In this document: positions 1-21,644 of the stretch, in pieces
Position numbering within the stretch: the first letter of the stretch is position 1
Layout: every line of letters starts with the position of its first letter
Virus record (IMG/VR): IMGVR_UViG_648276671_000014
Origin: a virus
Lineage: Duplodnaviria; Heunggongvirae; Uroviricota; Caudoviricetes
Length of the DNA: 24,740 nt
Strand: one strand, 5' to 3'
Notes under the pieces: model-generated
Told to the model about the DNA's origin: nothing
Databases searched by the model: none
Seen by the model: the letters and a program-made list of their open reading frames with translations, nothing else
Program-made: the position numbers and the translations under genes

Positions 1-1056
1 TTATTGCGGGGTAATGCCAACCGCTGCCGCCACTTTGTCGCCATTTGGTAACGTTGCCAGTGGATTGAAACGGAGCGCCGTTTCCAAATGATCCGGTGCC
101 AGATGCGCATAACGCATAGTCATTTTTATATCGTGGTGTCCGAGAATTTTTTGTAAGGCCAAGATGTTTCCACCCGACATCATGAAGTGCGCCGCAAACG
201 TATGGCGCAGAACGTGTGTCAGTTGACCGCGAGGGAGAACGATAGACGTTTTTTCCATCACGGATAAAAATTGAAAATAGCAGTCTGTGAAGAAATTGAA
301 CCCATCGAGCGCCATGATCTCTTCATAAAGCTCTTTACTGATAGGGATGCTTCTGTTTTTCTTCCCCTTCGTTCTCACAAAGGTGATTCGGTACTTGGTG
401 ACCTGTGAGCGGGTAAGATTGATTGCTTCTCGCCAACGTGCGCCTGTACTTAGACATATTTTTACCACCAGTGCCAGAATTGGGTTCTGACGTTTGCAGT
501 CAGACAGTAATTCGATAATCTGCTCATGTGTAAGCCATGCCATTTCCTTTTCTGCGATAGTGAATTTGCGCATCTTCTCTAATGGGTTTGGAAGTGTCCA
601 TTCACCCAGGCGGGAAAGTTCTCTGAAAACGCTGCTTAGATGGCTTTGCTCCAGGTTAACAGTAACTGGGCTTGCTCCTTTCTTCCATTTTTCACTGAAG
701 TAGATTTCACCAGTAAGGCGTTTATCGCGATAGTGAGCAAACATTTTTGAGGTGAGATCAGTTGCAAGGGGATTTCCCAAGGCGTCAACCATCAACAGCA
801 GCTTGTTGTAGACATGCTGTCCGGCAGTAAGAGATTTGCCATGTAATTTGAACCATAGCTCAACCATATCTTTCAGTGTCCGACGATCCACTGATTCGCC
901 CAGCCAGGGCTTTGCTTCTATTTCCCCCATGGTGTATCGCTCGAAGGCCAGTGCTTCGCCTTTGGTGGCGAATTGTTTACGCACACGACGCCCATTACGT
1001 CCGGCGGGGTAACATTCGCAAAGCCATTTCCCTGTGGTGAGTTTTCGTACTGCCAT
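1..1056 (-). CDS. int: Tyrosine integrase (P2 Int-like)
   Basis: N-terminus MAVRKLTTGKW..GRNGRRVRKQF resembles the P2 Int start. Tyrosine-recombinase motifs are present: TGARWRE, HVLRHTFA, GHHDIKMTMRYAHL. Start moved to ATG 1056; the track's extension to 1212 has no integrase-like sequence. Confidence 0.9.
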   Translation of the reverse strand: MAVRKLTTGKWLCECYPAGRNGRRVRKQFATKGEALAFERYTMGEIEAKPWLGESVDRRTLKDMVELWFKLHGKSLTAGQHVYNKLLLMVDALGNPLATDLTSKMFAHYRDKRLTGEIYFSEKWKKGASPVTVNLEQSHLSSVFRELSRLGEWTLPNPLEKMRKFTIAEKEMAWLTHEQIIELLSDCKRQNPILALVVKICLSTGARWREAINLTRSQVTKYRITFVRTKGKKNRSIPISKELYEEIMALDGFNFFTDCYFQFLSVMEKTSIVLPRGQLTHVLRHTFAAHFMMSGGNILALQKILGHHDIKMTMRYAHLAPDHLETALRFNPLATLPNGDKVAAAVGITPQ

Positions 1057-1244
1057 AAAAAATGCCCTCCAGTAGAGAGCATTTTCACTGTATGTATAAC
1101 CAGTGTCAATGTATGAAATCCTACGACCATACATCTCACTGAAGCCATAATTAAGTTGGCTATTCTTTTTGCTATGTGAGCATGTAATTTTTGCGGTTAA
1201 CCTGCGGCTCATTTTTATTTTAGGCGCAGATATAAAAGCAAAAG

Positions 1245-4201: not shown

Positions 4202-5055
4202 GCACCATCCTGAAATGGGCGGGAAATAAAACCGCCATTATGTCCGAACTGAAAAAACACCTTCCTGCTGGCCCGCGACTGGTTGAACCTTTCGCGGGTT
4301 CCTGTGCTGTGATGATGGCGACGGATTACCCCAGCTATCTGGTTGCTGATATTAATCCTGATTTAATCAACCTCTATAAAAAGATTGCCGCTGATTGCGA
4401 AGCGTTTATATCTCGTGCCAGAGCTTTATTTGAGGAAGCAAACAGGGAGGTGGCTTATTACAACATAAGGCAGGAGTTTAACTGCTCAACTGAAATTACT
4501 GACTTCATGAAAGCAGTATATTTCCTGTATCTCAATCGTCACGGTTACCGTGGGTTATGTCGCTATAACAAGAGCGGGCATTTCAACATTCCCTACGGTA
4601 ATTATAAAAATCCGTATTTCCCTGAAAAAGAAATTCGCGCATTTGCAGAGAAAGCCCAGCGAGCAACGTTTATCTGCGCCAGCTTTGATGAAACGCTGGC
4701 GATGCTGCAGGTGGGGGATGTGGTGTATTGCGATCCGCCTTATGACGGTACGTTTTCCGGCTATCACACTGACGGCTTCACTGAAGATGACCAGTATCAC
4801 CTGGCATCTGTTCTTGAATATCGATCATCAGAAGGTCATCCAGTCATTGTTTCTAACAGTGACACATCCCTGATCCGTTCGCTGTATCGAAATTTCACTC
4901 ACCACTACATCAAGGCAAAACGCAGCATCGGCGTGTCGGCTGGCGAGAGTAAATCTGCAACAGAAATCATTGCTGTTTCCGGGGCGCGCTGCTGGGTGGG
5001 ATTTGATCCTTCGTGTGGCGTGGATAGTTCTGCTGTGTACGAGGTGCGTATATGA
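4198..5055 (+). CDS. dam: DNA adenine methyltransferase (Dam, GATC-type, orphan)
   Basis: LKWAGNK, FAGSCAV (SAM-binding FxGxG) and catalytic DPPY are all present. ATGA overlap with the upstream stop. Start at ATG 4198, not the track's 4138. Confidence 0.9.
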
Positions 5056-7466
5056 GTCATGACGATATGAGCAACTCTAGCGGCTTTAACGAGGCCGCTG
5101 CAGCATTTTCATGGAACGGCCCGAAAAAGGCCATTAACCCTTATCTGGACCCGGCGGAAGTTGCGCCGGAGTCTGCACTTTCAAACCTGATCACTCTGTA
5201 CGCTGCCGATAATGAGCAGGAACAGCTGCGCCGCGATGCACTGAGTGAGCAGGTCTGGGAGCGTTATTTCTTTAATGAATCTCGTGATCCTGTCCAGCGC
5301 GAAATGGAGCAGGATAAGCTCATTAGCCGGGCAAAGCTGGCGCATGAACAGCAGCGTTTTAACCCGGACATGGTCATTCTGGCGGACGTCAGCGCCCAGC
5401 CCACCCATATTAGCAAGCCGCTGATGCAACGTATCGAATACTTCAGCAGCCTGGGCAGGCCAAAGGCTTATTCCCGCTATTTGCGTGAGACGATTAAGCC
5501 ATGTCTGGAGCGACTGGATTGTGTACGTGACAGTCAGCTGTCTGCTTCTTTCCGTTTTATGGCAAGCCATCAAGGGCTGGAGGGCCTGCTGATCCTGCCT
5601 GAAATGAGTCAGGATCAGGTGAAACGCCTGTCCACCCTGGTAGCTGCGCATATGAGCATGTGCCTTGATGCAGCTTGTGGCGATTTGTATGCCACCGATG
5701 ACGTTAAGCCAGAAGAAATCCGCAAGACATGGGAAAAGGTGGCGGCGGAAACCCTGCGTCTGGATGTCATCCCACCTGCGTTTGAGCAACTCCGTCGGAA
5801 AAGAAACCGCCGTAAACCCGTGCCCTATGAACTCATTCCGGGTTCGCTGGCGCGTATGTTGTGCGCCGACTGGTGGTATCGGAAATTATGGAAGATGCGT
5901 TGCGAATGGCGGGAAGAGCAGTTGCGTGCTGTCTGCCTGGTCAGCAAAAAAGCATCTCCCTATGTCAGCTATGAAGCCGTGATGCATAAACGTGAGCAGC
6001 GCCGTAAGTCGCTGGAGTTTTTCCGTTCTCATGAACTGGTGAACGAAGACGGCGACACGCTGGACATGGAGGATGTGGTAAACGCCAGCAGCAGCAACCC
6101 TGCGCATCGCCGCAATGAGATGATGGCCTGTGTTAAAGGTCTGGAGCTTATCGCGGAAATGCGCGGTGACTGCGCCGTTTTCTACACTATCACCTGTCCG
6201 TCACGTTTCCATTCCACGCTCAACAACGGCAGACCCAACCCAACCTGGACAAATGCGACGGTAAGACAAAGCAGCGATTATCTGGTCGGCATGTTTGCTG
6301 CATTTCGTAAGGCAATGCACAAAACCGGGTTGCGCTGGTATGGCGTACGGGTGGCTGAGCCGCACCATGACGGTACTGTGCACTGGCATCTCATGTGCTT
6401 CATGCGTAAAAAAGACCGCCGCGCCATCACTGCATTACTGCGTAAGTTTGCCATCCGTGTAGACCGCGAGGAGCTGGGCAACAATACGGGGCCACGCTTT
6501 AAGTCTGAGCTGATTAACCCGCGCAAAGGAACACCGACAAGCTACATCGCGAAATACATCAGTAAGAACATTGACGGGCGTGGTCTGGCTGGCGAGATCA
6601 GCAAGGAAACGGGTAAATCCCTGCGTGATAACGCCGAATACGTCAATGCCTGGGCGTCTCTGCATCGTGTTCAGCAGTTCCGCTTCTTTGGTATTCCGGG
6701 ACGTCAGGCTTACCGTGAACTTCGCTTGCTGGCTGGTCAGGCGGCAAGGCAACAGGGTGACAAAAAAGCAGGTGCGCCGATACTGGATGACCCGCGCCTT
6801 GATGCCATCCTGGCTGCTGCTGATGCTGGTTGTTTTGCCACCTACATCATGAAGCAGGGCGGCGTACTGGTTCCCCGTAAATATCACCTTATCAGAACCG
6901 CTTATGAAATCAACGAAGAGCCGACCGCCTATGGCGATCACGGCATTCGTATTTATGGCATCTGGTCACCCATTGCAGAGGGCAAGATCTGCACTCATGC
7001 AGTGAAGTGGAAAATGGTTCGTAAGGCCGTTGACGTTCAGGAGGCGGTAGCCGACCAGGGCGCTTGCGCCCCTTGGACTCGTGGCAATAACTGTCCCCTT
7101 GCTGAAAATTTGAACCAACAAGGGAAAGACAAATCAGCTGATGGGGATACCAGGACGGACATTACCCGCATGGATGACAAGGAGTTGCACGATTACCTGC
7201 ACAGTATGAGCAAAAAAGAGCGCCGGGAACTGGCTGCAAGGTTACGCCTGGTGAAACCGAAACGGCGTAAAGACTACAAACAGCGAATTACAGACCATCA
7301 GCGACAGCGGCTCGTCTATGAACTGAAGTCCAGAGGATTTGATGGCAGCGAGAAAGAGGTCGATTTACTCCTTCGCGGCGGCAGTATTCCGTCAGGAGCA
7401 GGCCTGCGTATCTTCTATCGGAACCAGCGTTTGCAGGAAGATGATAAGTGGCGAAACCTGTATTAA
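5052..7466 (+). CDS. A: Replication initiation endonuclease (P2 gpA family, rolling-circle HUH nuclease)
   Basis: 804 aa. HUH motif (VHWHLM) and paired tyrosines (SYIAKYISK) are characteristic of gpA. Position is after the early genes. Confidence 0.9.
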
Positions 7467-7619: not shown

Positions 7620-7808
7620 ATGCAGGACTATTTTTTGGAGTCTTTGAAGCTCCAGCGCATTGATTTTTTTCTTAAGCTTGTAGCGGCTAGTGAGTGTAGT
7701 GATGAAGAGAAGGGGCTGGCTTTGCAGTGGGTTTCTGAACTGACAGATGAACTCATGGCAAAAATCAGAACCCACGAATACAACCGCTCAATGGATGTCA
7801 TCAGCTGA
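7620..7808 (+). CDS. Small acidic protein (62 aa), possible Tum-like antirepressor
   Basis: Strong SD AGGAGGAAAG immediately before ATG 7620. First gene behind the LexA box. The functional call rests on position only. Confidence 0.5.
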   Translation: MQDYFLESLKLQRIDFFLKLVAASECSDEEKGLALQWVSELTDELMAKIRTHEYNRSMDVIS

Positions 7809-7818
7809 GGTGACTTTT

Positions 7819-8052
7819 ATGCGCATTGAAATAATGATCGATAAAGAGCAGAAGATTAGCCAGTCTACCCTGGACGCCCTTGAATCCGAGCTTTACCGCA
7901 ATCTGCGCCCCCTATATCCAAAAACGGTAATTCGCATCCGCAAAGGTAGCTCTAACGGTGTGGAACTGACTGGACTGCAACTGGACGAAGAAAGGAAGCA
8001 AGTGATGAAAATTATGCAGAAGGTGTGGGAAGACGACAGCTGGCTGCATTAA
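7819..8052 (+). CDS. DinI-family protein (77 aa)
   Basis: MRIEIMIDKEQKISQSTLDALESELYRNLRPLYP...VWEDDSWLH matches DinI/MsgA-family features (about 80 aa, acidic C-terminus ending W-L-H-type). Confidence 0.8.
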   Translation: MRIEIMIDKEQKISQSTLDALESELYRNLRPLYPKTVIRIRKGSSNGVELTGLQLDEERKQVMKIMQKVWEDDSWLH

Positions 8053-8322: not shown

Positions 8323-8538
8323 ATGTCAAGCATCGCCGCATTTAGCCTGGGTAACCCAGTTGAACGTCTGGCAAGGGTTCTTAAAGAGAACCAGGACAAA
8401 CTCAATCTTAGTAAAGATGGTTTTGTGTCCGTAGACTTGTCTAACAAAAGAGCAATGGATGCCATCAAGGCACAGATGGATAAGCTTGAAGGCATCAAAA
8501 CGAGCACTGTAAAAGAGAAAACTAATAGAACCAGATAA
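8323..8538 (+). CDS. Hypothetical small protein (71 aa), first gene of the AT-rich cargo cassette
   Basis: Strong SD GGGGGAG before ATG 8323. Stop TAA overlaps the next ATG (ATAATGG), indicating translational coupling. Confidence 0.6.
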   Translation: MSSIAAFSLGNPVERLARVLKENQDKLNLSKDGFVSVDLSNKRAMDAIKAQMDKLEGIKTSTVKEKTNRTR

Positions 8539-8738
8539 TGGCAACATTACTTTTAGCAGTGATTTTGGTTAGTGGTTTTATTTATGTAAACCTATCACTT
8601 TCAACAAGATACCGATATAAGCGTTCCAACGGCTGGGACGCTTATTTTTTGTGGCTGCCTGGGGTATCGTTTTTTTCTCCTTGGCGGTTTTTTCACCTTT
8701 ATTTTGAACGTCAGCGGAGGGTTTCGTTGGCTGGCTAA
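8538..8738 (+). CDS. N-terminal membrane segment ORF (66 aa), probably the 5' part of a frameshifted gene
   Basis: MATLLLAVILVSGFIYV is a TM helix. The frame leaves hydrophobic sequence after the T-runs at 8645-8693, while the +1 frame continues as TM-like sequence into ORF 8704-9378. Confidence 0.4.
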   Translation: MATLLLAVILVSGFIYVNLSLSTRYRYKRSNGWDAYFLWLPGVSFFSPWRFFHLYFERQRRVSLAG

Positions 8739-9378
8739 TGCCTTGAATCTAACACCTGACAGTTTTAATGGCATGTTGTCTTCATCGAAAGACAAACTTC
8801 AAAGAATAAATGAAATCAAACAGATAGCATGGGTTATGATTTCAATTGTTCTCGCTGCGATTTCAGGTTTTGGAAATAAGTTACGCACATCACGTGGAGA
8901 TCGTCGCTGGGATGCCTTAGCTAAAGCTGTGGGTAATAACGCTTTCGAATCATTACTCATGGAAGCGTCCGCAAGACAGTTTCCGATCATAGCAACTCTG
9001 TCGTCTCGCAAAATCTATGTTGGTCTTGTTACTTGTCCGGCGTTAGAAAACGGGCTTTCAGAACACCTTGAACTTCTCCCGATGTTAAGCGGATATCGGG
9101 ATAAAGATGATCTAACGATTAGTATCACGACTAACTATCACCAACATTATCTTGATAGTGGTGTGATAAGTGGAATGTCTCGGCTTAATATCGAAGATTT
9201 CCGTGTGCTCATACCAAAAGATGAGGTTGAAACAATTTCGTTTTTTGATACTGAGACATATAACAAATTTAAAGAAAATGAAGCCAGGGATAGAAAGAAC
9301 TGTCGAAAGATTGGTAGTAAAAGTGCATCTTCGCGCAGCAAGCGTGCAGCAGATGCTGAGTCAAATGATCGTGCATGA
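8704..9378 (+). CDS. Hypothetical membrane-associated protein (224 aa as listed; the frame is open back to 8590)
   Basis: The listed start is TTG with no ATG upstream in frame. Contains a TM helix (IAWVMISIVLAAISGFG) and a soluble C-terminal domain with a basic/acidic tail. AT-rich. Followed by a strong terminator. Confidence 0.55.
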   Translation: MNVSGGFRWLANALNLTPDSFNGMLSSSKDKLQRINEIKQIAWVMISIVLAAISGFGNKLRTSRGDRRWDALAKAVGNNAFESLLMEASARQFPIIATLSSRKIYVGLVTCPALENGLSEHLELLPMLSGYRDKDDLTISITTNYHQHYLDSGVISGMSRLNIEDFRVLIPKDEVETISFFDTETYNKFKENEARDRKNCRKIGSKSASSRSKRAADAESNDRA

Positions 9379-9473
9379 CTATGCTGCATGAGATCGCATG
9401 ATCGTTTGAGGATCGTTTTTGCTAAGGCCCGCCAGAACTGGCGGGCTTTTGCGTAGATCATGCACCTGCATGA
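9365..9473. repeat. Motif array next to cos: GCATGA x4 direct plus x1 inverted, and 5 GATC sites
   Basis: GCATGA at 9373, 9386, 9396 and 9468; TCATGC at 9458. GATC at 9367, 9392, 9400, 9411 and 9456. ATGATCGT is repeated at 9365 and 9398. Confidence 0.6.
9427..9450 (+). terminator. Rho-independent terminator
   Basis: GCCCGCCA (9427-9434), loop GAAC, TGGCGGGC (9439-9446), then TTTT. Lies 49 nt after the stop of ORF 8704-9378. Confidence 0.8.
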
Positions 9474-9495
9474 AAACTACTACATAAAGCGGGCA

Positions 9496-9514: not shown

Positions 9515-9538
9515 TGCGCGTAATAACTAATATTCCTA

Positions 9539-9567
9539 TTGACTTTCTATGATGCAATAGCTAATTT
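9539..9567 (+). promoter_or_regulatory. Candidate sigma70 promoter (TTGACT - 17 bp - TAATTT) for the tRNA-like leader and HEPN gene
   Basis: -35 at 9539-9544, 17-nt spacer, -10 at 9562-9567. The expected transcription start near 9574 coincides with the 5' end of the cloverleaf. Confidence 0.4.
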
Positions 9568-9573
9568 ATTTCT

Positions 9574-9657
9574 AGGCCTATAGTTTAATTTGGGAAAACG
9601 GCGGAGTATGATTTAGGTTATATATCCGTCATACCGGTTCGATTCCGGTTAGGCAAA
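9574..9657 (+). ncRNA. tRNA-like cloverleaf element (non-canonical: 19-nt anticodon-position loop, no CCA)
   Basis: Acceptor 9574-9580/9650-9656 pairs 5 of 7. TA at 9581-9582 (U8 A9). D stem GTTT/AAAC 9583-9586/9596-9599 with loop AATTTGGGA. Stem GCGGA/TCCGT 9601-9605/9625-9629. T stem ACCGG/CCGGT 9633-9637/9645-9649 with canonical loop TTCGATT. Confidence 0.4.
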
Positions 9658-9685
9658 GAGCATTTTAGAGTGTTCTTTGCCTAAC
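9648..9685 (+). promoter_or_regulatory. Long hairpin immediately 5' of the HEPN gene SD
   Basis: GTTAGGCAAAGA (9648-9659) pairs perfectly with TCTTTGCCTAAC (9674-9685). The stem extends with G-T, C-G, A-T, T-G and T-A to a TTAG tetraloop. No T-run follows. SD CAGGA at 9685-9689, ATG at 9698. The 5' arm is also the 3' acceptor strand of the tRNA-like fold. Confidence 0.6.
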
Positions 9686-9697
9686 AGGATACGTAAA

Positions 9698-10447
9698 ATG
9701 ACTGATGACGAGATTAAAAATATTTTCCATGCTCAAACTGATAATGTTAGAGAGCTTGAGAAAGTCTGGAAACAAATAGTCAAAGAAATTAATACTGCAT
9801 TACGAACAGATAATGCAGTCCAAGTTGCACTTAAAACCAAAATGCTAGGTTTGGTTTTTTGCGCTCTTGCCGAAGCTCAATTTTCAAAGTTGATCCACAC
9901 GCCCGGTCAATTTTCCCCTAATGAAATAGAACAGATTAAATATGCAGCTTCATCTAATGTCTCAGATGGATGGTTAAAGTGCATAAATTTGGCTACGAGA
10001 CGACTATCGAAAGGCACAAAGCATAATCATGTTCCTAATGTTATTCAGGAGCTTGAAAGACTAGTTGATGATTTTATAAAAGCGCCAAGTTTAATTAGAA
10101 ATAAAATTGCGCATGGACAATGGGTTGTCGCTCTTAATAGAAAGAATACACATGTGAACTCAGAAATGACACATACTTTGCGTAATTTGACAATAGTGGA
10201 ATTAACAAAGTTTAAAGATGCTTTCACGAGAATGTCGCGAATAGTCGAAGATATTATTAAATCTCCTAATAAAGCTCATTTGCGTGATTATTGGCCGCAG
10301 CTTGAAGAGTTTAGAGCAAAGCAAAAGGAAATGGATAGTTGGACTCTTGCTGAAAAAGTCTTCCAATTAAAAAAGAAATATAATTACTCATCTAATATGA
10401 GATGTGAATCATGCGGTCAGTTACATGTTGATAGAAATAAACAATGA
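9698..10447 (+). CDS. HEPN-domain protein (Rx4H motif RNKIAH), putative abortive-infection or toxin RNase
   Basis: 249 aa, all-helical-looking, with a single LIRNKIAHGQW motif (R-N-x3-H, classic HEPN active site). AT-rich cargo. ATG 9698 preferred because the track's TTG 9677 lies inside the hairpin. Confidence 0.75.
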   Translation: MTDDEIKNIFHAQTDNVRELEKVWKQIVKEINTALRTDNAVQVALKTKMLGLVFCALAEAQFSKLIHTPGQFSPNEIEQIKYAASSNVSDGWLKCINLATRRLSKGTKHNHVPNVIQELERLVDDFIKAPSLIRNKIAHGQWVVALNRKNTHVNSEMTHTLRNLTIVELTKFKDAFTRMSRIVEDIIKSPNKAHLRDYWPQLEEFRAKQKEMDSWTLAEKVFQLKKKYNYSSNMRCESCGQLHVDRNKQ

Positions 10448-10494
10448 TGATTATTATTTTGTGACACTTTCAATATTTTAATGCTTTATATATT

Positions 10495-10522
10495 AGCAAT
10501 GGTCATTAACATGACCATTGCT
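10495..10522. terminator. Perfect 12-bp hairpin between convergent HEPN and Q genes (possible bidirectional terminator)
   Basis: AGCAATGGTCAT, loop TAAC, ATGACCATTGCT. There is no clear T-run on either side, so the terminator function is uncertain. Confidence 0.45.
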
Positions 10523-10537
10523 ATGTGACCTAATATA

Positions 10538-11578
10538 TTAGTTATCTTCTGTCCTGAGCGAGTAAAAGCTAAAACGGAGAATTTCTTCACCAAGCCAGTT
10601 ATTTAGTTCCTGTAAACGTTTCTGCAGTGACATTAGTTCATTGCGTACAAAAACGCGACTAGCTTTCTCCACATCCCCAAATCCCCCAACATTATTTGGC
10701 ATTATCCCCATCATCTGTGGCGGCACGCGGTGCGCTGCCATCATGTCATCCCGACTCACGTTCTTGATATTAAGAAATTCATCCTTCGCCGCGACTTCTG
10801 ACAATGGGATGATCTGAAGCCCGTCCTTTTTGCCGTTAGGCGAGTACATAAACAGGTTGCGGAAGTTGCCTGGACCTTTGGCGCTTTTCATCGCGTTGCG
10901 GAGGTTGTTCACATCTTCCTGGTTCTGCGCGGCATCGGTCATGTACATGATGAAGCCTGCATGGCTGCCGTTGATGTAATACTTACGGCGGAACAGCGTG
11001 GCAGACTCGTTGAGCAGGGCGGATGGAATGGCAGAAAGATAGCCGGGCAGGCCGTAGATCTCCTGGTTGATGTCCGGTTCCATCAGATGAAAAATGCTGC
11101 CTTTCGTGAACTGATACGGCTGGGTTGTCATACCGTATTGCACAAACCAGTAGGTATCCAGGTCTAACCCGCGTCGGGTGTATTTTGCCAGCGCAGGCTC
11201 AAGGGCGATAACTTCACCGAATCGGTTCGTGCGTTTCTCCAGGTAGGCGTTACCAAATACCAGATAGTCCTGCACAAAACGCGAAAAAGCCTGCTGGCTG
11301 AGCAGCGGATGAGGGATATAGGTACTGGTCAGAATGTTGCACTTTACTGCAATCGGGGAACTGTGATGCACGGCGGCGCGGAAGGTGCGCGCCAGTCCGT
11401 TAAAGCTGACGGGCGGCTCATACCAACGGTCCATCTGTACGCATTCCACATAGTCCAGCAGTTCACGGCGGTCCAGAACAGGAACGGGATCGCCGAAGCT
11501 GAATGCTTCGGCTGTAGTTTGACTTTTAAGCTGGATCTGTTTCGTCGCCGCAGCTCGGTTCTTCTTACTCTTTCCCAT
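10538..11578 (-). CDS. Q: Portal protein (P2 gpQ)
   Basis: 346 aa, P2 Q-like in length and sequence. TGATG overlap with the P stop. Start taken at ATG 11578; the track's 11581 is TTG. Confidence 0.9.
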   Translation of the reverse strand: MGKSKKNRAAATKQIQLKSQTTAEAFSFGDPVPVLDRRELLDYVECVQMDRWYEPPVSFNGLARTFRAAVHHSSPIAVKCNILTSTYIPHPLLSQQAFSRFVQDYLVFGNAYLEKRTNRFGEVIALEPALAKYTRRGLDLDTYWFVQYGMTTQPYQFTKGSIFHLMEPDINQEIYGLPGYLSAIPSALLNESATLFRRKYYINGSHAGFIMYMTDAAQNQEDVNNLRNAMKSAKGPGNFRNLFMYSPNGKKDGLQIIPLSEVAAKDEFLNIKNVSRDDMMAAHRVPPQMMGIMPNNVGGFGDVEKASRVFVRNELMSLQKRLQELNNWLGEEILRFSFYSLRTEDN

Positions 11579-13344
11579 CAAAAAATCTCCACAATATTGC
11601 TGGTATTGGCGGATTCGCCCTGCAGCGGTTCGTTAAACAGTGCGTGCATCGTTGCCCATGCCAGATCGGCGTGGCTGGCTTCTTCGCTGCGGCTGGCTTC
11701 ATAGGTCGGGCGGTTGCCACTGGCGGTGGTGGCGCGACGGATTGCCATAAATGACTGCGCAATGTCGGTATGTCCGGCGTCAAACTCCAGACGGCGGTGG
11801 CTGATAATGTCGTAGGCCTTGAGTACCAGGGCGTTTTTAACGTTGGGGTTGTAGACAAACTCCCGGACGGCAGGAAAGAACGCTTTCACGTTCTCGTAAA
11901 CCCCGTGACCAACGCCGGTTGAGTCGATGCCGATGTAGGTCACGTTGTACTGCTCGGTCAGTTTTTTGATTGCGTCAGCCTGGGCGCGGAAGTCCATCCC
12001 GCGCCACTGGTGACGCTCAAGAATGCGAAACTTACCGCCCGGCACGGCTGGCGGTGCCACCACCACGCATCCGGCGCTGTCGCCGTTCTGCGTACCTTTT
12101 GCCGGGTCATAACCGATCCACACTTCGCGCCAGCCAAACGGGCGCAGGGCCAGAGCATGAAAGTCGGTCCAGACTTCCCAACTGTCCACCATGCACGCCT
12201 GCAGCTCGCTGAGCGGAAACACGGACGCGAGATCGTCCACAAACTCGCACATCAGCAGGTTCTGGTATTCGTCCAGGCTGTACTCCATGCGCAACTGGTC
12301 GAGGTCGAACAGGTTACAGCCGCCGCGCACCGCATCTTCCACAGTGACTATCTGGCGGTACTGCCCGTCTGCGCACAGCAGGCCGGGGGCCAGATTGCTG
12401 TGGGACAGGTCGATGTCCACCTTATCGGCTTTGTTGCGCCCACGATTGAACAGCGCACCGGACCAGAACGGATAAGCACTGTGAGTCAGGCTGGATGGCG
12501 TGGAAAAATAGGTTTGTCGCCATTTTTTGTGAATAGCCATCCCGGAAGCCACTTTGCGCAGCTCCTGGAATTTCGGTATCCAGAAATATTCATCCAGATA
12601 CAGGTTGCCGTGGTAACTCTGGGCCGTGCGGGCATTGGTGCCGAGGAAGTAAAGCGTGGCTCCGTTAGGAAGCACCATCGGATCGCCTTTTAGCTCTACC
12701 TCGACTTCTTTGGCGAAGTCGATGATGTACTGCTTAAAGACGTGAGCCTGTGCCTTACTGGCGGAAAGGAAAATCTGGTTACGTCCGGTAAGCAGGGCGT
12801 CAATCAGGGCTTCACGGGCAAAGTAAAAGGTCGCGCCGATCTGGCGTGACTTCAGCAGGTTGCGGATGCGGTTGGTTTTTCCGGCTTCCCACCAGTGGCG
12901 CTGGTAGTTGAACATGGAGGAATGGAAGATTTCTTCCAGTTTCTCAATCTGTTCATCGGTGAAAACATTCTTTTCCGGCTGACGGCGCGGGCCCTTATTG
13001 CGGTTGGCGACGTTAGGGTTTAAGTCAGCTTCGTTGCCGCCATTGTTAAACTTGCCGATCCGCGCGTGGCGCTCCGACTGGCGCGCCAGCAGGTCAATTT
13101 CTTTGAAATCTTTCCCTTCTTTATGCTCCTTCATGATGAGCTGGCAGTAGCGTGCGGCGGTGGTGAGCTGCATCTGATCCAGCGGCCCATAGTCACCCCA
13201 CTTGTCGCGTTTTTTCCAGCTGTGAACGGTTGCAACTTTCTCGCCCAGCATTTCAGCAATGCGGGCTACGCGGTATCCCTGAAAGTACAGCAGCATGGCC
13301 TGCCGACGGGGATCGAGATCTGCGGGTGTCAGTGTGGTGTTCAT
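11578..13344 (-). CDS. P: Terminase large (ATPase) subunit (P2 gpP)
   Basis: 588 aa. The N-terminus ...DPRRQAMLLYFQGYRVARIAEMLGEK..SWKKRDKW and KSRQIGATFYFA match the P2 gpP pattern. Confidence 0.92.
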   Translation of the reverse strand: MNTTLTPADLDPRRQAMLLYFQGYRVARIAEMLGEKVATVHSWKKRDKWGDYGPLDQMQLTTAARYCQLIMKEHKEGKDFKEIDLLARQSERHARIGKFNNGGNEADLNPNVANRNKGPRRQPEKNVFTDEQIEKLEEIFHSSMFNYQRHWWEAGKTNRIRNLLKSRQIGATFYFAREALIDALLTGRNQIFLSASKAQAHVFKQYIIDFAKEVEVELKGDPMVLPNGATLYFLGTNARTAQSYHGNLYLDEYFWIPKFQELRKVASGMAIHKKWRQTYFSTPSSLTHSAYPFWSGALFNRGRNKADKVDIDLSHSNLAPGLLCADGQYRQIVTVEDAVRGGCNLFDLDQLRMEYSLDEYQNLLMCEFVDDLASVFPLSELQACMVDSWEVWTDFHALALRPFGWREVWIGYDPAKGTQNGDSAGCVVVAPPAVPGGKFRILERHQWRGMDFRAQADAIKKLTEQYNVTYIGIDSTGVGHGVYENVKAFFPAVREFVYNPNVKNALVLKAYDIISHRRLEFDAGHTDIAQSFMAIRRATTASGNRPTYEASRSEEASHADLAWATMHALFNEPLQGESANTSNIVEIF

Positions 13345-18104: not shown

Positions 18105-18498
18105 AGCAGTGCCTTATGTCCGCAATAACCCGGACAAACTGCATCTGTTTGTGGATAACGGTTCGCTGGTTGCCACGGGGGCCAGCTCTATGTCGTGGGA
18201 GTACCGTTACACCCTGAACGCGGTGATTGAAGATTTCAGCGGCGACCAGAATCTGCTGATGGCCCCGGTTTTGCTGTGGCTGCGGGATAACCAGCCCGAT
18301 GCCATCAATAACCCGGCGTTACGGGAAAAGCTATTCACCTTTGAGGTGGATATTCTGCGCAACGATGTCTGTGATATCAGCCTTAACCTGCAACTGACGG
18401 AGCGTGTGCTGGTCAGCACTGACGGCAGTGTGTCGAACGTTGAAGCGGTAGCGGAACCTGATGAACCTGAAGAAATGTGGACGGTGAAACGTGGCTGA
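18067..18498 (+). CDS. R: Tail completion protein (P2 gpR)
   Basis: ...KPQSLRHALNKAV..NPDKLHLFVDNGSL...LLMAPVLLWLRDNQPD parallels P2 gpR. GTG 18067 with SD AGGAG 6 nt upstream is preferred over the track's TTG 18046. Confidence 0.8.
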   Translation: MNKPQSLRHALNKAVPYVRNNPDKLHLFVDNGSLVATGASSMSWEYRYTLNAVIEDFSGDQNLLMAPVLLWLRDNQPDAINNPALREKLFTFEVDILRNDVCDISLNLQLTERVLVSTDGSVSNVEAVAEPDEPEEMWTVKRG

Positions 18499-18937
18499 AT
18501 TGCAGAAGGTGGACGACTGGCTGAGTGCCTTGCTGGTGAATCTGGAGCCAGCCGCAAGAAGCCGTATGATGCGCCAACTGGCGCAGGAACTGCGCAGGAC
18601 ACAACAGAAGAACATCAGGATGCAGCGCAATCCAGATGGCAGTAGTTATGAACCGCGACGGGTAACAGCACGCAGTAAAAAGGGGCGTATCAAACGTCAG
18701 ATGTTTGCAAAGCTGCGCACCACAAAATACCTGAAAACTGCCGCCAGCGCCGATTCTGCCAGCGTACAGTTTGAAGGTAAGGTACAGCGCATTGCCCGTG
18801 TTCACCATTACGGTCTGCGTGATCGCGTAAATAAAAAAGGTTTAATCGCGAAATATCCGCAACGTACTTTATTGGGCTTATCTTATAAAACAGAAGAAAA
18901 TATTATTATGAGCATAAAGGAGGAGCTATCAAAATAA
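18491..18937 (+). CDS. S: Tail completion protein (P2 gpS), with an AT-rich replaced 3' end
   Basis: 148 aa, gpS-like (MAELQKVDDWLSALL..., HHYGLRDRVN...YPQRTLLGL). GC content drops sharply from about 18828 to the stop. Confidence 0.8.
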   Translation: MAELQKVDDWLSALLVNLEPAARSRMMRQLAQELRRTQQKNIRMQRNPDGSSYEPRRVTARSKKGRIKRQMFAKLRTTKYLKTAASADSASVQFEGKVQRIARVHHYGLRDRVNKKGLIAKYPQRTLLGLSYKTEENIIMSIKEELSK

Positions 18938-18977
18938 AGACGAGGAGGTTTAAATAACCCTCTCGTCTTTTGTTTTT
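18937..18977 (+). terminator. Rho-independent terminator ending the O-to-S late operon
   Basis: AAGACGAG (18937-18944) pairs with CTCGTCTT (18962-18969), followed by TTGTTTTT. Confidence 0.7.
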
Positions 18978-19203
18978 ATCCATAAGCCAGCTCCTGTGGA
19001 GATGGCGATTGATTAGCTGTTCATGTAAGAGTTAAATAGAGCTGAGATTTTTTGTGTATCCGTAACTGGATCAGTCGATGAGCCTTGTCTGATATAAAAC
19101 ATATTCTCAAAGTCGCAAATTTGACCTGTGCTCTGAATAGTTATCTTGAGTATGTGTAAGCCATTGTAAGAGCAAAACTCAATATTCTTAAGTATCTGCT
19201 GTT

Positions 19204-20787
19204 TTAGAGTTTCAGTGAAATCGTATCCTTGTATTTTTGTTTTATTAACATAAAGTAATCATCAATGCTACCAGAGACTAACATTGCTTCATGATCAATT
19301 CCGTTTATATAGAACCCATTGAACTCAATTGAATTTACTCCATATAAATGTTGAATTCTATCTGCGGTTAATTTATTTTCGGCAATACCAACTAAAATAT
19401 AGCCTTTTGCGCTTTTTCCAATATTATTTATTGCTACGCAAGTTTGTAATATTCCTTTTAAACATTCATCATCAAATTCATTTTTACCTGATAAATTAAA
19501 GAACCCCTGTTTGAAATCATAACTTGGTTGTTCAGTTCTAGAATTTGTTAATAGATTGCGAATTTCAGTTACCCAAGCATGATTCACATACTTTTGAGGA
19601 GCAGGTTGGAAGTAGCGACTTATTAATGCAACAAGATCATTAACACTTTTTTCACGAGTGCTTGCAGCCCAGCGGCCACCATCGGTAACCATAATTATGG
19701 TATTGCCAGTGTTTTTTAATTGCGAGAATAAACCTTCTTTATCAATTAATTGCATATTTTGGTTGAAAAGAAGTTCATAAATAGACAAAAACACAGCTTG
19801 ATAATAACGAGGGCATTCTTGAGATGAATTATCCTCCCCTAAAATATGGCTTCTAAAAGTATCATTTTTTCCGTCATATAGGCTTGTAATTAATTCATAT
19901 ACAGCTATGAAATTCTGCTTAATAGTGGCAGCGTTATTGGTTTGAATGAAAGACTCTAATTGCTGTCTGACACCATGAGCATGAGAGGAGTTTCCTTGAC
20001 CATAGAATGTGTCGAGAGAAGTTGACCCAGATGTGGGTTTTTCTTCTAGACTGATATATGCAAGGATATTGGCTATCAATTCCTCGTCATCAGAATCACG
20101 AATACTTCGTCTTGTTAAAATATGATGTTTTATATAAAAGTGGTTATCGATATTTACCCCGTACTCCAATCTATCGTTACTGATTGAAATTTTGTGCATT
20201 TGCTGGAGATTCATAATGTCAGAATGGCTAGTATCACCTCTGATCGATGTTGATATCGATCTGACCAGTTCAGAGAAGTTACTAACTGTTCCTGCACTAC
20301 GTAATTCTTGTTTGGATAAAATCTTCCCGTTTGAGTTTATTCGTCTGAATACTTCGTCAATATTTTCATTTGTGGAGCTATATTCTGATATTGCAAATCG
20401 ATAACGTGCAATAATTGCTGAAGAATCACGGGAAAGAATTGGTTCTTTCTGAATTAAAGTTCCATTATCTTTAAGTTGTTTTGTTAAAGCTATAGAGTCC
20501 AAATCAAAATATTGTCCATCTAATGAAAATCTCTGTTCGATGAAGCTCATAATTGCTTCTAATCTTTGCATTCCATCCAATATTTCTCTTTGTTCATTGA
20601 TGGTAACAAATAATAATAACGGAATAGGATATTGTTGCAGCATAGAAGATATTAAAGAAGTCTTTTCTTCTAGAGACCATACAAGTTTCCTTTGATAACG
20701 TCTATTGACTATCAAATTTCCTTGCAAATACCATTCGTATAATTGCTCGGTAGTCCTTGAGTCAATATCAAGATTTTCATTTGGCAT
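19204..20787 (-). CDS. DUF262 (ParB/GmrSD N-terminal type) protein with a Schlafen/AlbA_2-like C-terminal domain; candidate single-gene defence protein
   Basis: 527 aa from ATG 20787 (SD AAGGAG 8 nt upstream). DUF262 motifs: NRRYQRKLVW, ILDGMQRL (DGQQR-type), VFRRINSNGKILSKQELRSA. The C-terminus EQPSYDFKQG...CVAINNIGKSAKGYILVGIAE fits the AlbA_2 pattern (ExxxxEFK ... AxxN..GG.l.iGv). About 30% GC. Antisense to the late operons. Confidence 0.8.
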   Translation of the reverse strand: MPNENLDIDSRTTEQLYEWYLQGNLIVNRRYQRKLVWSLEEKTSLISSMLQQYPIPLLLFVTINEQREILDGMQRLEAIMSFIEQRFSLDGQYFDLDSIALTKQLKDNGTLIQKEPILSRDSSAIIARYRFAISEYSSTNENIDEVFRRINSNGKILSKQELRSAGTVSNFSELVRSISTSIRGDTSHSDIMNLQQMHKISISNDRLEYGVNIDNHFYIKHHILTRRSIRDSDDEELIANILAYISLEEKPTSGSTSLDTFYGQGNSSHAHGVRQQLESFIQTNNAATIKQNFIAVYELITSLYDGKNDTFRSHILGEDNSSQECPRYYQAVFLSIYELLFNQNMQLIDKEGLFSQLKNTGNTIIMVTDGGRWAASTREKSVNDLVALISRYFQPAPQKYVNHAWVTEIRNLLTNSRTEQPSYDFKQGFFNLSGKNEFDDECLKGILQTCVAINNIGKSAKGYILVGIAENKLTADRIQHLYGVNSIEFNGFYINGIDHEAMLVSGSIDDYFMLIKQKYKDTISLKL

Positions 20788-20816
20788 AATTTTTCTCCTT
20801 GTTAGATTGAACTTAT

Positions 20817-20845
20817 ATATTGTCAATAAACATCTTTTGTGTCAA
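20817..20845 (-). promoter_or_regulatory. Candidate sigma70 promoter for the DUF262 gene (TTGACA - 17 - CAATAT with TGn extended -10)
   Basis: Minus-strand TTGACA at 20845-20840, 17-nt spacer, TGaCAATAT ending at 20817. This predicts a leader of about 23 nt containing the SD. Confidence 0.4.
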
Positions 20846-21001
20846 AGATTACATAGTAACTGCCTAAATTAATTGGCTTTTAATAATTAAAGACGTAGCT
20901 TTCAAGTGCTTTTTTAAGAGCATTGAACTTCTTAACTTGCGCAACGTCATTCGACCTTTTGCAACGTATTAATGCTCTAACGCAGACCATTGAAAGGCAT
21001 T

Positions 21002-21019
21002 TGTTCTATGTCTAATACA
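21002..21019. promoter_or_regulatory. TGT-N12-ACA dyad upstream of V (late activator site candidate)
   Basis: TGTTCTATGTCTAATACA is an exact TGT-N12-ACA. Its centre is 55 nt before the V ATG, which is closer than expected if the site sits at -55 from the transcription start. A weaker CGT-N12-ACG dyad lies at 20965-20982. Confidence 0.4.
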
Positions 21020-21065
21020 ATAACAAAGGCTGTCTACTGCTTGCTATTGATGGCAACCTTTCCCT

Positions 21066-21644
21066 ATGAACGCACAATTAACCGAAATCATGCGCCTTAT
21101 CACCAACCTGATCCGCACTGGTGTAGTCACCGAAGTGGACCGGGAGAATTGGCTTTGCCGGGTGAAAACGGGCGACCTTGAAACTAACTGGATCAGTTGG
21201 CTGACGCTGCGCGCGGGTAATGCCCGGACATGGTGGCGACCATCGGAAGGTGAGCAGGTGGTGCTGCTGAGTCTGGGCGGAAATCTGGAAACCGCCTTTG
21301 CGTTGCCCGCCATCTATTCGAATCAGTTCGCTCCACCGTCGACATCAGCGGATGCCTGCGTGACAGAGCATCCTGACGGCGGCTGGTTTGAATATGAACC
21401 CGCCACCGGGCGCTGGTTTGTCAGGGGCATCAAATCAATGGTCATTGAGACCGCTGACAATATCACCCTGAAAACCAGTGAGTTTGTGCTGGAGGCTGAC
21501 CGCACGCGTATTAACAGCGAAGTATTGATCAATGGTGGCGTTACCCAGGGCGGCGGTGCGATGAGTTCTAACGGGATCGTGGTTGATGCGCATCAGCATA
21601 CTGGCGTCCTGAAAGGCGGCGATACAACCGGAGGCCCGGTATGA
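21066..21644 (+). CDS. V: Baseplate spike/assembly protein (P2 gpV)
   Basis: 192 aa. ...LIRTGVVTEVD...CRVKTGDLETNWISWLTLRAGNARTWW.PSEGEQV parallels P2 gpV. Confidence 0.9.
   Translation: MNAQLTEIMRLITNLIRTGVVTEVDRENWLCRVKTGDLETNWISWLTLRAGNARTWWRPSEGEQVVLLSLGGNLETAFALPAIYSNQFAPPSTSADACVTEHPDGGWFEYEPATGRWFVRGIKSMVIETADNITLKTSEFVLEADRTRINSEVLINGGVTQGGGAMSSNGIVVDAHQHTGVLKGGDTTGGPV

Follow-up and report, generated by a model that had tools for sequence, protein, structure and literature searches.

A tRNA-like cloverleaf RNA and a probable HEPN-type RNase gene as cargo of the cosL–Q hotspot in a P2-like prophage

Introduction

What takes the place of the short spacer between the cohesive end (cos) and the portal gene Q when a P2-like prophage carries about 1 kb of foreign DNA at this position, and is the position itself unusual? 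These questions are raised by a 24,740-nucleotide stretch of viral DNA (IMG/VR record IMGVR_UViG_648276671_000014, Caudoviricetes), referred to here as the window, which gene identification by open reading frames (ORFs) and Pfam places among the 186/Fels-2-type P2-like prophages. Between cos and Q the window holds an AT-rich cassette in which a tRNA-like cloverleaf RNA lies upstream of the gene for an all-helical protein, and an earlier reading of the same DNA (the original prediction) had described this insertion as a new one. We find that the cosL–Q position of the cargo is real, but that it is a known hotspot. The RNA and the protein co-occur strictly, across more than 12 phyla. Judging from these sequence patterns, we lean, though not strongly, toward the view that the cassette in the cosL–Q hotspot is a putative abortive-infection or type III-like toxin–antitoxin (TA) module.

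Results and discussion

Borders of the cassette

The elements that delimit the cassette are listed below.

9380–9495: block flanking cos on its gpA (right-end) side, conserved in Fels-2, 186-like prophages and P2-like prophages of Klebsiella and E. coli
9496–9514: 19-nt cohesive end (cos), GGCGTGGCGGGGATACGAG, matching the annotated cosL of P2, 186 and phiCTX at every aligned base
9515–9520: TGCGCG, the only bases toward Q that are conserved beyond cos
9521–10570, plus strand: exchangeable AT-rich cargo cassette, its left edge sharp and its right edge diffuse within the 3′ end of Q
10494–10506 with 10511–10523: perfect 13-bp hairpin with a 4-nt loop, situated where the cargo ORF and Q converge, at 15 nt from the Q stop codon
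10538–11581, minus strand: portal gene Q (Pfam Phage_portal), stop codon at 10538–10540

The succession of cos, TGCGCG and AT-rich DNA from 9521 is present as originally described. Specifically, the AT-rich sequence TAATAACTAATATTCC begins at 9521, and the GC content of 9521–10537 is 34.0%, a little above the figure of roughly 30% first given for the cargo; the corresponding values are 53.9% in the cos block, 52–56% in genes Q, P and A, and 49.8% over the window as a whole. The break at 9520 is not a compositional accident, because homology to other records stops there: megablast matches to 60 phage and 1198 E. coli records end at window positions 9520–9538, and among relative prophages homology ends at 9519/9520 in all 75 contigs that retain cos. 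These relatives were drawn from 80 IMG/VR contigs selected for a Q with 92% or more identity to the window Q, 75 of which retain the cos block; the cos-flanking block itself is recovered by megablast at 92–99% identity over query positions 1–141. In an alignment of P2, 186, phiCTX, Fels-2 and 813R9, the GCGCG that follows the cohesive end is invariant and the sequence beyond it is divergent. The expectation that the insertion would limit the flanking sequence needed by cos is thus borne out, with just 6 bp past the cohesive end conserved on this side, and the comparative data sharpen the cos requirement to 6 bp or less toward Q. The sharp break fits the asymmetric 55-bp core reported for the P2/P4 cos site (Ziermann and Calendar 1990, as summarized in a citing paper).

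The right border is of a different nature. Among relatives, nucleotide homology ends inside Q at window positions 10562–10638, and the last ~10–30 codons of Q (~10538–10640) vary between prophages whose Q genes are otherwise 92–97% identical (loci L084–L162), such that the final 25–30 residues differ. These codons are also as AT-rich as the adjoining cargo. Since the Q tail is both AT-rich and variable in the manner of the cargo, each cassette evidently brings its own end of gene Q, which is the second point that the comparative data sharpen. The AT-rich block had been described as stopping at the hairpin; it runs on into the variable Q codons, to about 10562–10638. We propose that cassettes would be swapped by recombination between two anchors, namely cos plus 6 bp on one side and the body of Q on the other.

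The hairpin, for which 12 perfect base pairs at 10495–10522 had been noted, is confirmed and extends to 13 bp at 10494–10523. It occupies the position of the annotated tQ of P2 and tW of 186, is not followed by a run of U residues, and received no call in a scan for consensus terminators. We regard it as probably a terminator serving the cargo ORF and Q alike. An 11-nt perfect inverted repeat, ATAACTAATAT and ATATTAGTTAT, is also present at the edges of the cassette (9523–9533 and 10535–10545), with its right copy overlapping the Q stop codon. About 0.7 inverted pairs of 11 nt would be expected by chance in this region, and 50 other cargos of the same slot have edge repeats of only 4–7 nt, which is chance level. 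Terminal inverted repeats were rejected on this basis as a general signature of cassettes or their mobility, and the 11-nt repeat is specific to the window cassette.

The slot between cosL and Q as a known hotspot

In the annotated records of P2 and 186, the distance from cos to the portal stop codon is 167–176 bp and contains a terminator and no gene. The original prediction had described a gene-free spacer in P2 and proposed its replacement here by about 1 kb of foreign DNA with a leader and a HEPN-type ORF, and both statements hold. Its suggestion that the insertion point is unusual does not. Phage phiCTX carries ctx between cosL and Q with an annotated promoter and terminators of its own, Fels-2 has a 1698-bp ORF (STM2723.1) in the same interval, and vB_EcoM-813R9 has a Hypoth_Ymh ORF there. 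Retrons Ec67 and Ec86 replace the DNA between cos and a terminator in a 186-like prophage (Dodd and Egan 1996, as cited in PMC5694545, where Nakayama 1999 is cited alongside for the same slot), and in the literature the interval has been documented since the 1990s and already called a hotspot. Moreover, the P2 defence hotspot was defined as the gpA–gpQ interval "adjacent to the cos site", and so spans cos (Rousset et al. 2022, PMC9122126).

A comparison of cos–Q intervals, which the original prediction had suggested while naming a known hotspot as the finding that would count against it, revealed just such a hotspot among the relatives. The slot is empty in two of the 75 (153–155 bp from the Q stop codon to the junction), and the other 73 carry cargo of 512–3491 bp (median 1549) at 31–43% GC, giving 50 different interval lengths in all. 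The largest cargo ORF converges on Q in every cargo-bearing relative. Cargo proteins of at least 150 residues form 48 clusters, none of which is related to the window cargo, and PADLOC defence models match eight of the ten relative cargo proteins that were scanned (retron type I-C, ShosTA, bSEFIR, AbiU-like, PD-T7-4, PDC-M03A and TIR). The window cassette has the features of this hotspot: it lies between the cohesive end and Q, has conserved flanks and an unrelated interior, and combines foreign GC content with its own predicted transcription signals. Cargos such as ctx, STM2723.1, Ec67/Ec86, ORF1–4 of phiRSY1 and those of the gpA–gpQ interval share both the slot and the architecture, which consists of cos, a few conserved bases, a promoter with AT-rich cargo read toward Q, and a terminator shared with Q. 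The window cargo itself is unrelated to ctx, STM2723.1, Ec67/Ec86, phiRSY1 ORF1–4 or the hotspot cargos of Rousset et al.

With cargo starting only 6 bp from the cohesive end, and with a gene across cos (8538–9378) that looks frameshifted, one could suppose that the insertion harms cos and that the prophage is a packaging-defective remnant, an alternative that had been raised from the outset. We judge this very unlikely. The same cos-plus-6 junction is found in the viable phages P2, 186, phiCTX and Fels-2 as well as in 75 of 75 relatives, and Q, P, O, N, M and L are intact ORFs in the window, as are the lysis and tail genes. The exact cargo protein is furthermore indexed in 139 blocks of an assembly collection, and in the five places shown (L169–L173) it sits in the cos–Q slot with different neighbours. 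The contents between DinI and cos in these five are, respectively, an ORF of 225 residues, nothing, ORFs of 71 and 280 residues, an ORF of 141 residues on the other strand, and an ORF of 259 residues. Within this sample of five places, the contents on the two sides of cos seem to assort independently of each other.

A cloverleaf tRNA mimic upstream of the cargo gene

The RNA component of the cassette and its arms are located as follows.

9574–9656, plus strand: cloverleaf tRNA mimic without an anticodon loop
9576–9580 with 9650–9654: acceptor stem, 5 bp
9583–9586 with 9596–9599: D arm
9600–9612 with 9617–9630: long "anticodon" arm with a 4-nt loop
9633–9637 with 9645–9649: T arm, with GGTTCGATTCC

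The Rfam tRNA model (RF00005) matches 9576–9654 with 30.7 bits against a gathering threshold of 29; a 19-nt insertion replaces the anticodon loop in this match, and the outer acceptor pairs are missing. Apart from the tRNA model and chance matches to miRNA families, Rfam gave nothing at its gathering thresholds or at E ≤10, and ARAGORN calls no tRNA in the window. The element thus has the cloverleaf of a tRNA with D and T arms and the GG/TΨC elbow, and lacks the 7-bp acceptor stem and the 7-nt anticodon loop of conserved identity.

This element accompanies the gene throughout the family. A T-loop motif lies 30–100 nt before the start codon in all 75 species-representative genome loci with upstream sequence, as an exact GGTTCRANTCC in 70 and with one mismatch in the other five. 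In 733 kb of family loci there are 86 occurrences of the motif, of which 72 fall at this position; 938 kb of other P2-like loci contain three. Most leader sequences fold unaided into a cloverleaf with a 5-bp acceptor, a 4-bp D stem with a GG loop and a canonical T arm, and the "anticodon" arm varies from 5 to 13 bp with a loop of 3–5 nt. The outer two acceptor positions are unpaired in 31–38 of 40 sequences.

A covariance model (R1) built from nine family RNA sequences matches the window with 55.7 bits (E = 5.6e-13) and finds a full-length element directly upstream of the gene in 57 loci, plus eight more. It has no match in 80 P2-like loci with other cargo (0.94 Mb without the gene), and at E ≤1 the ordinary ARAGORN-called tRNA genes in the sampled loci are left unmatched. 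All four arms of the cloverleaf covary: 96.9% of cells in the R1 alignment are paired, 18 of 20 pairs show compensatory changes, none of 500 shuffles reaches this pairing, and slid controls give 33–46%. This alignment is fitted to the model; the results for the acceptor, the T arm and the downstream hairpin described below also hold on a plain MAFFT alignment.

The association is also apparent when metagenomes are searched with the RNA pattern only. Of the 43 matches that have family-like spacing and are followed by 400 nt or more of sequence, 38 have the gene ~50–70 nt downstream. Five short-spacing matches are without it, four being array tRNAs or located in array contigs and the fifth (L233) having no called tRNA. 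Two matches with longer spacing also carry the gene, and the longest-spacing matches that were checked are ordinary tRNA-Cys genes. The array contigs (L287 with 27 tRNA genes, L183, L198 and L296) contain dense tRNA arrays in which some real tRNAs (Phe, Glu) score 42–50 bits with R1, well over the ordinary tRNAs of the sampled genome loci. Such array tRNAs may be the source of the mimic, or the model that it imitates.

A second form of the RNA, which R1 largely misses, has a G5:C5 acceptor stem followed by a run of C residues, no downstream hairpin, and a start codon 20–30 nt after the cloverleaf. It occurs in Bacteroidota, Cyanobacteria, Planctomycetota and some Proteobacteria (loci L039, L042, L048, L049, L051–L055, L059, L061, L068, L069, L074 and L081).

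Might the element instead be a true tRNA gene, or what is left of a tRNA attachment site that came in with the cargo? The Rfam score just over the gathering threshold and the ARAGORN tRNA calls in some homologous loci would point that way, yet the anticodons in those calls disagree between loci (Lys, Arg, Pyl, Pro, Met, Ile, Leu, Asn or undetermined) and are unrelated or impossible. Together with the silence of ARAGORN in the window, the 5-bp acceptor and the 3–5-nt loops, this leaves the idea with almost no credence. An attachment-site remnant would also have to account for the complete length of the element and for its constant orientation and spacing relative to the gene, which are kept in every context, even in a prophage next to cos. 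We could find neither the RNA class in Rfam nor a description of the mimic–protein pair in the searchable literature; the pair is apparently undescribed.

The cargo protein is probably a HEPN-type RNase

The protein gene of the cassette is as follows.

9698–10447, plus strand: cargo ORF, 249 residues, all-helical, PHROG 12663 (no assigned function)

An AlphaFold model of the product is all-helical (pLDDT 89.4, pTM 0.84). Across 38 family sequences, the motif R134-N-K-x-A-H139-G-x-W is invariant (R134, N135, K136, A138, H139, G140 and W142), as are about 20 other positions, and all 38 thereby contain the Rx4-6H signature of HEPN proteins with a polar residue after the arginine. Nothing significant was found for the protein in Pfam or NCBIfam, and no PDB entry matched by sequence profile. 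Among the weak Pfam matches the sole coherent ones are three HEPN families, none of them significant, and the Abi_2 domain has no match even at E ≤1. Fold searches were uninformative, and the label "HEPN-like" therefore rests on the motif. On the strength of this motif, we consider the protein a probable HEPN-type RNase.

Homologues number 160 at E ≤0.001, and at the same threshold 433 cluster representatives were found among 1.84 billion, which makes the family a small one. Family members are nearly always single-domain proteins of 230–250 residues. According to record titles they occur in Gamma-, Beta- and Alphaproteobacteria and in Acidobacteriota, Bacteroidota, Myxococcota, Nitrospirota, Chloroflexota, Cyanobacteria, Firmicutes, Planctomycetota, Campylobacterota and others. 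No copy of the cargo was found in 5,426 complete E. coli genomes, and a plasmid collection yielded only two distant matches. The neighbourhoods of homologues are mobile or defence-like: one lies in a prophage beside a gene pair for a reverse transcriptase and an SMC/AAA ATPase, with a retron/Septu-like look, and others are found at the integrase end of an integrative conjugative element, beside a pair encoding an AAA protein and an S8 protease, and among IS elements with a reverse transcriptase. No conserved protein partner was seen among the neighbourhoods examined. The RNA–protein pair ranges from Enterobacteria to Bacteroidota, Cyanobacteria and Firmicutes, with defence hotspots as its setting.

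Promoter and competing hairpin in the leader

Two further elements bear on how the RNA and the gene might be expressed together.

9539–9567, plus strand: predicted sigma-70 promoter (TTGACT at 9539–9544, 17-nt spacer, TAATTT at 9562–9567)
9644–9689, plus strand: alternative hairpin with a 17-bp core (9648–9664 with 9669–9685), which uses the 3′ acceptor strand

The predicted transcription start is at ~9574–9576. A generic promoter scan missed this promoter because its −10 element matches at only three of six positions; the register is nonetheless conserved, with a −10 element ending 8 nt before the acceptor strand (model position 3) forming part of the best pair in 35 of 57 loci. The mean score in this register is 8.4 of 12 versus 6.7 ± 0.12 in shuffles, and the family consensus is TTGACA or TTGACT with a spacer of ~17 nt. 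From the conserved register, the mimic is therefore predicted to be the extreme 5′ end of the mRNA. The single predicted promoter lies at the 5′ end of the RNA, and there is no space for a second one.

The alternative hairpin excludes the cloverleaf because both need the 3′ acceptor strand. The same five bases of this strand covary with two partners, and 20 of 24 predicted hairpin pairs show compensatory changes in the Proteobacteria-type loci (plain MAFFT alignment). The hairpin core abuts the Shine–Dalgarno sequence (AGGA, 9686–9689), and it has an extension in which AGG of that sequence is paired with UCC from the T arm. In 40 loci this extension is 68–95% paired in five of six positions and its variation is one-sided, which is suggestive of conserved pairing up to the Shine–Dalgarno sequence. 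For the window leader, the calculated energies are −47.9 kcal/mol in the hairpin state and −36.0 kcal/mol with the cloverleaf enforced. As the hairpin has no U-tract and the terminator scan was silent, its role as an intrinsic terminator was rejected.

A leader of this kind could be a purely cis-acting translational switch between cloverleaf and hairpin states, in which the RNA has no later action on the protein. The two covarying partners of the 3′ acceptor strand, the reach of the extension to the Shine–Dalgarno sequence and the predicted place of the RNA at the 5′ end of the mRNA are all what such a switch would call for. We nonetheless consider such a purely cis-acting switch rather unlikely. 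The extension pairs vary on one side only, and a full tRNA elbow would be a costly route to a translational hairpin. Moreover, loci of the Bacteroidota type keep the cloverleaf and have no hairpin, which argues that the tRNA shape, rather than the switch, is the conserved core of the element.

Proposed function

Taken together, these features suggest that the cargo is of the structured-RNA-plus-HEPN-type-toxin kind, with an apparently new class of RNA. A fuller proposal, which we offer as tentative and somewhat doubtful as a whole, is that the pair represents a widespread but rare class of immunity or TA module in which an anticodon-less mimic, making up the first 80 nt of the mRNA, controls a putative HEPN-type RNase as a pseudo-substrate or bait. 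In the reading that we favour, though not strongly, namely a prophage-borne abortive-infection or type III-like TA module, the cassette would form a single transcription unit read from cos toward Q and consisting of the promoter, the mimic, the 17-bp hairpin and the protein gene. The protein would act as a tRNA-directed RNase, or one that recognizes the shape of a tRNA, and the mimic could occupy it as an uncleavable pseudo-substrate, since the loop at which anticodon nucleases cut is missing from it. Infection that halts host and prophage transcription, or that destroys the RNA, would then free the nuclease.

Several observations weigh against this favoured reading. With the leader at full length, the hairpin state is favoured over the cloverleaf by ~12 kcal/mol, and a free cloverleaf would therefore depend on co-transcriptional trapping, on processing at its 3′ side or on a binding partner. 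Because the hairpin is without a U-tract, the RNA and the mRNA may never separate. In addition, zero families among the PADLOC-DB 2.0 defence models match the cargo protein, and none of 50,697 deposited phage genomes contains a member of the cargo family.

The mimic might also be read as bait for tRNA-related factors of incoming phages, including tRNA nucleases, repair ligases, modification enzymes and tRNA arrays, with its alteration activating the protein. It does retain the elbow and acceptor features that tRNA-handling enzymes read while the decoding loop is discarded, and array tRNAs in the four metagenome contigs described above score up to 42–50 bits with the family model. This likeness comes from four contigs, the argument is otherwise entirely inferential, and the trigger has no known candidate, so that we consider a bait of this type improbable, and less plausible than the cis-acting switch. 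The preferred reading, in which the mimic would hold the RNase as a pseudo-substrate, makes the pair a candidate for a new way to regulate or trigger an immune nuclease through tRNA mimicry. If true, tRNA mimicry would be a means of keeping such a nuclease in check. Catalogues of phage hotspots that consider only proteins miss RNA components of this sort.

Comparison with known systems

The nearest tested analogue of the putative window module is AbiF(Cd)/RCd22. In a C. difficile prophage, AbiF(Cd) is an Abi_2/AbiD/F HEPN toxin, and the upstream abiF-motif RNA RCd22 binds and neutralizes it in cis and in trans (PMC12373285). The window cassette resembles this pair in being prophage-borne and in having a single HEPN-type protein, no protein antitoxin, and a structured RNA immediately upstream. 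It differs in that its RNA is a cloverleaf mimic rather than an abiF motif and its protein has no Abi_2 match.

A similar arrangement is found in the type III TA systems ToxIN, CptIN and TenpIN, where an RNA gene, a hairpin and an endoRNase gene follow one another under one promoter; in the window this organization is predicted. The RNAs of type III systems are tandem repeats that are cut into units by the toxin, whereas the window RNA is single copy, and no tandem or direct repeats were found. The type III toxins also differ in fold, and the window hairpin is without a U-tract.

In terms of the protein, PrrC and RloC offer a parallel. Both have a HEPN-type Rx4H motif, are linked to tRNA and act in abortive infection, and both contain large ATPase domains; PrrC is restrained by a restriction–modification protein and not by RNA. 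The window protein shares the HEPN-type Rx4H motif and is without the large ATPase domains, and cleavage of tRNA by it is hypothetical. In terms of the RNA, bacterial Y RNAs (YrlA) are non-coding, contain a tRNA-like D/T-loop module and are encoded beside the protein that binds them, Rsr/Ro60; they do not serve as mRNA leaders, and a long stem binds Ro. The window RNA is alike in placing a tRNA-like module beside a protein gene, and its partner protein is unrelated. The DUF3800 RNA motifs were considered as a further set of tRNA look-alikes; the paper on them does not describe such a likeness, and the comparison was dropped.

Other features of the prophage

The remaining annotated features of the window are listed below.

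1–1212, minus strand: integrase; the window begins at its stop codon
1452–2027: CI-type repressor
5052–7466: replication gene A
7747–8052: DinI, with small ORFs onward to 9378
9421–9452: GC-rich inverted repeat, GCTAAGGCCCGCCAG and CTGGCGGGCTTTTGC, then TTTTGC
11578–13344, minus strand: terminase P

Capsid, lysis and tail genes come after terminase P. The inverted repeat at 9421–9452 ends 44 nt before cos, within the block conserved among relatives, and looks like a terminator of the gpA-side genes. Also on the gpA side of cos, PHROG 3630 is split over two adjoining ORFs in different frames, at 8538–8738 (profile positions 1–38) and 8704–9378 (profile positions 68–273). Locus L171 has one intact ORF of 280 residues at this place. 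The split at 8538–9378 is a probable frameshift, reflecting either a pseudogene or a sequencing error.

A second AT-rich island (30–36% GC) is present at 18940–21060, between the tail genes S (18491–18937) and V (21066–21644), and corresponds to the known variable S–V ("TO"/orf30) locus of P2. The island contains a minus-strand ORF at 19204–20826 that encodes a 540-residue GmrSD_N/DUF262-type protein with PADLOC matches to NsnA and PD-T4-2_A.

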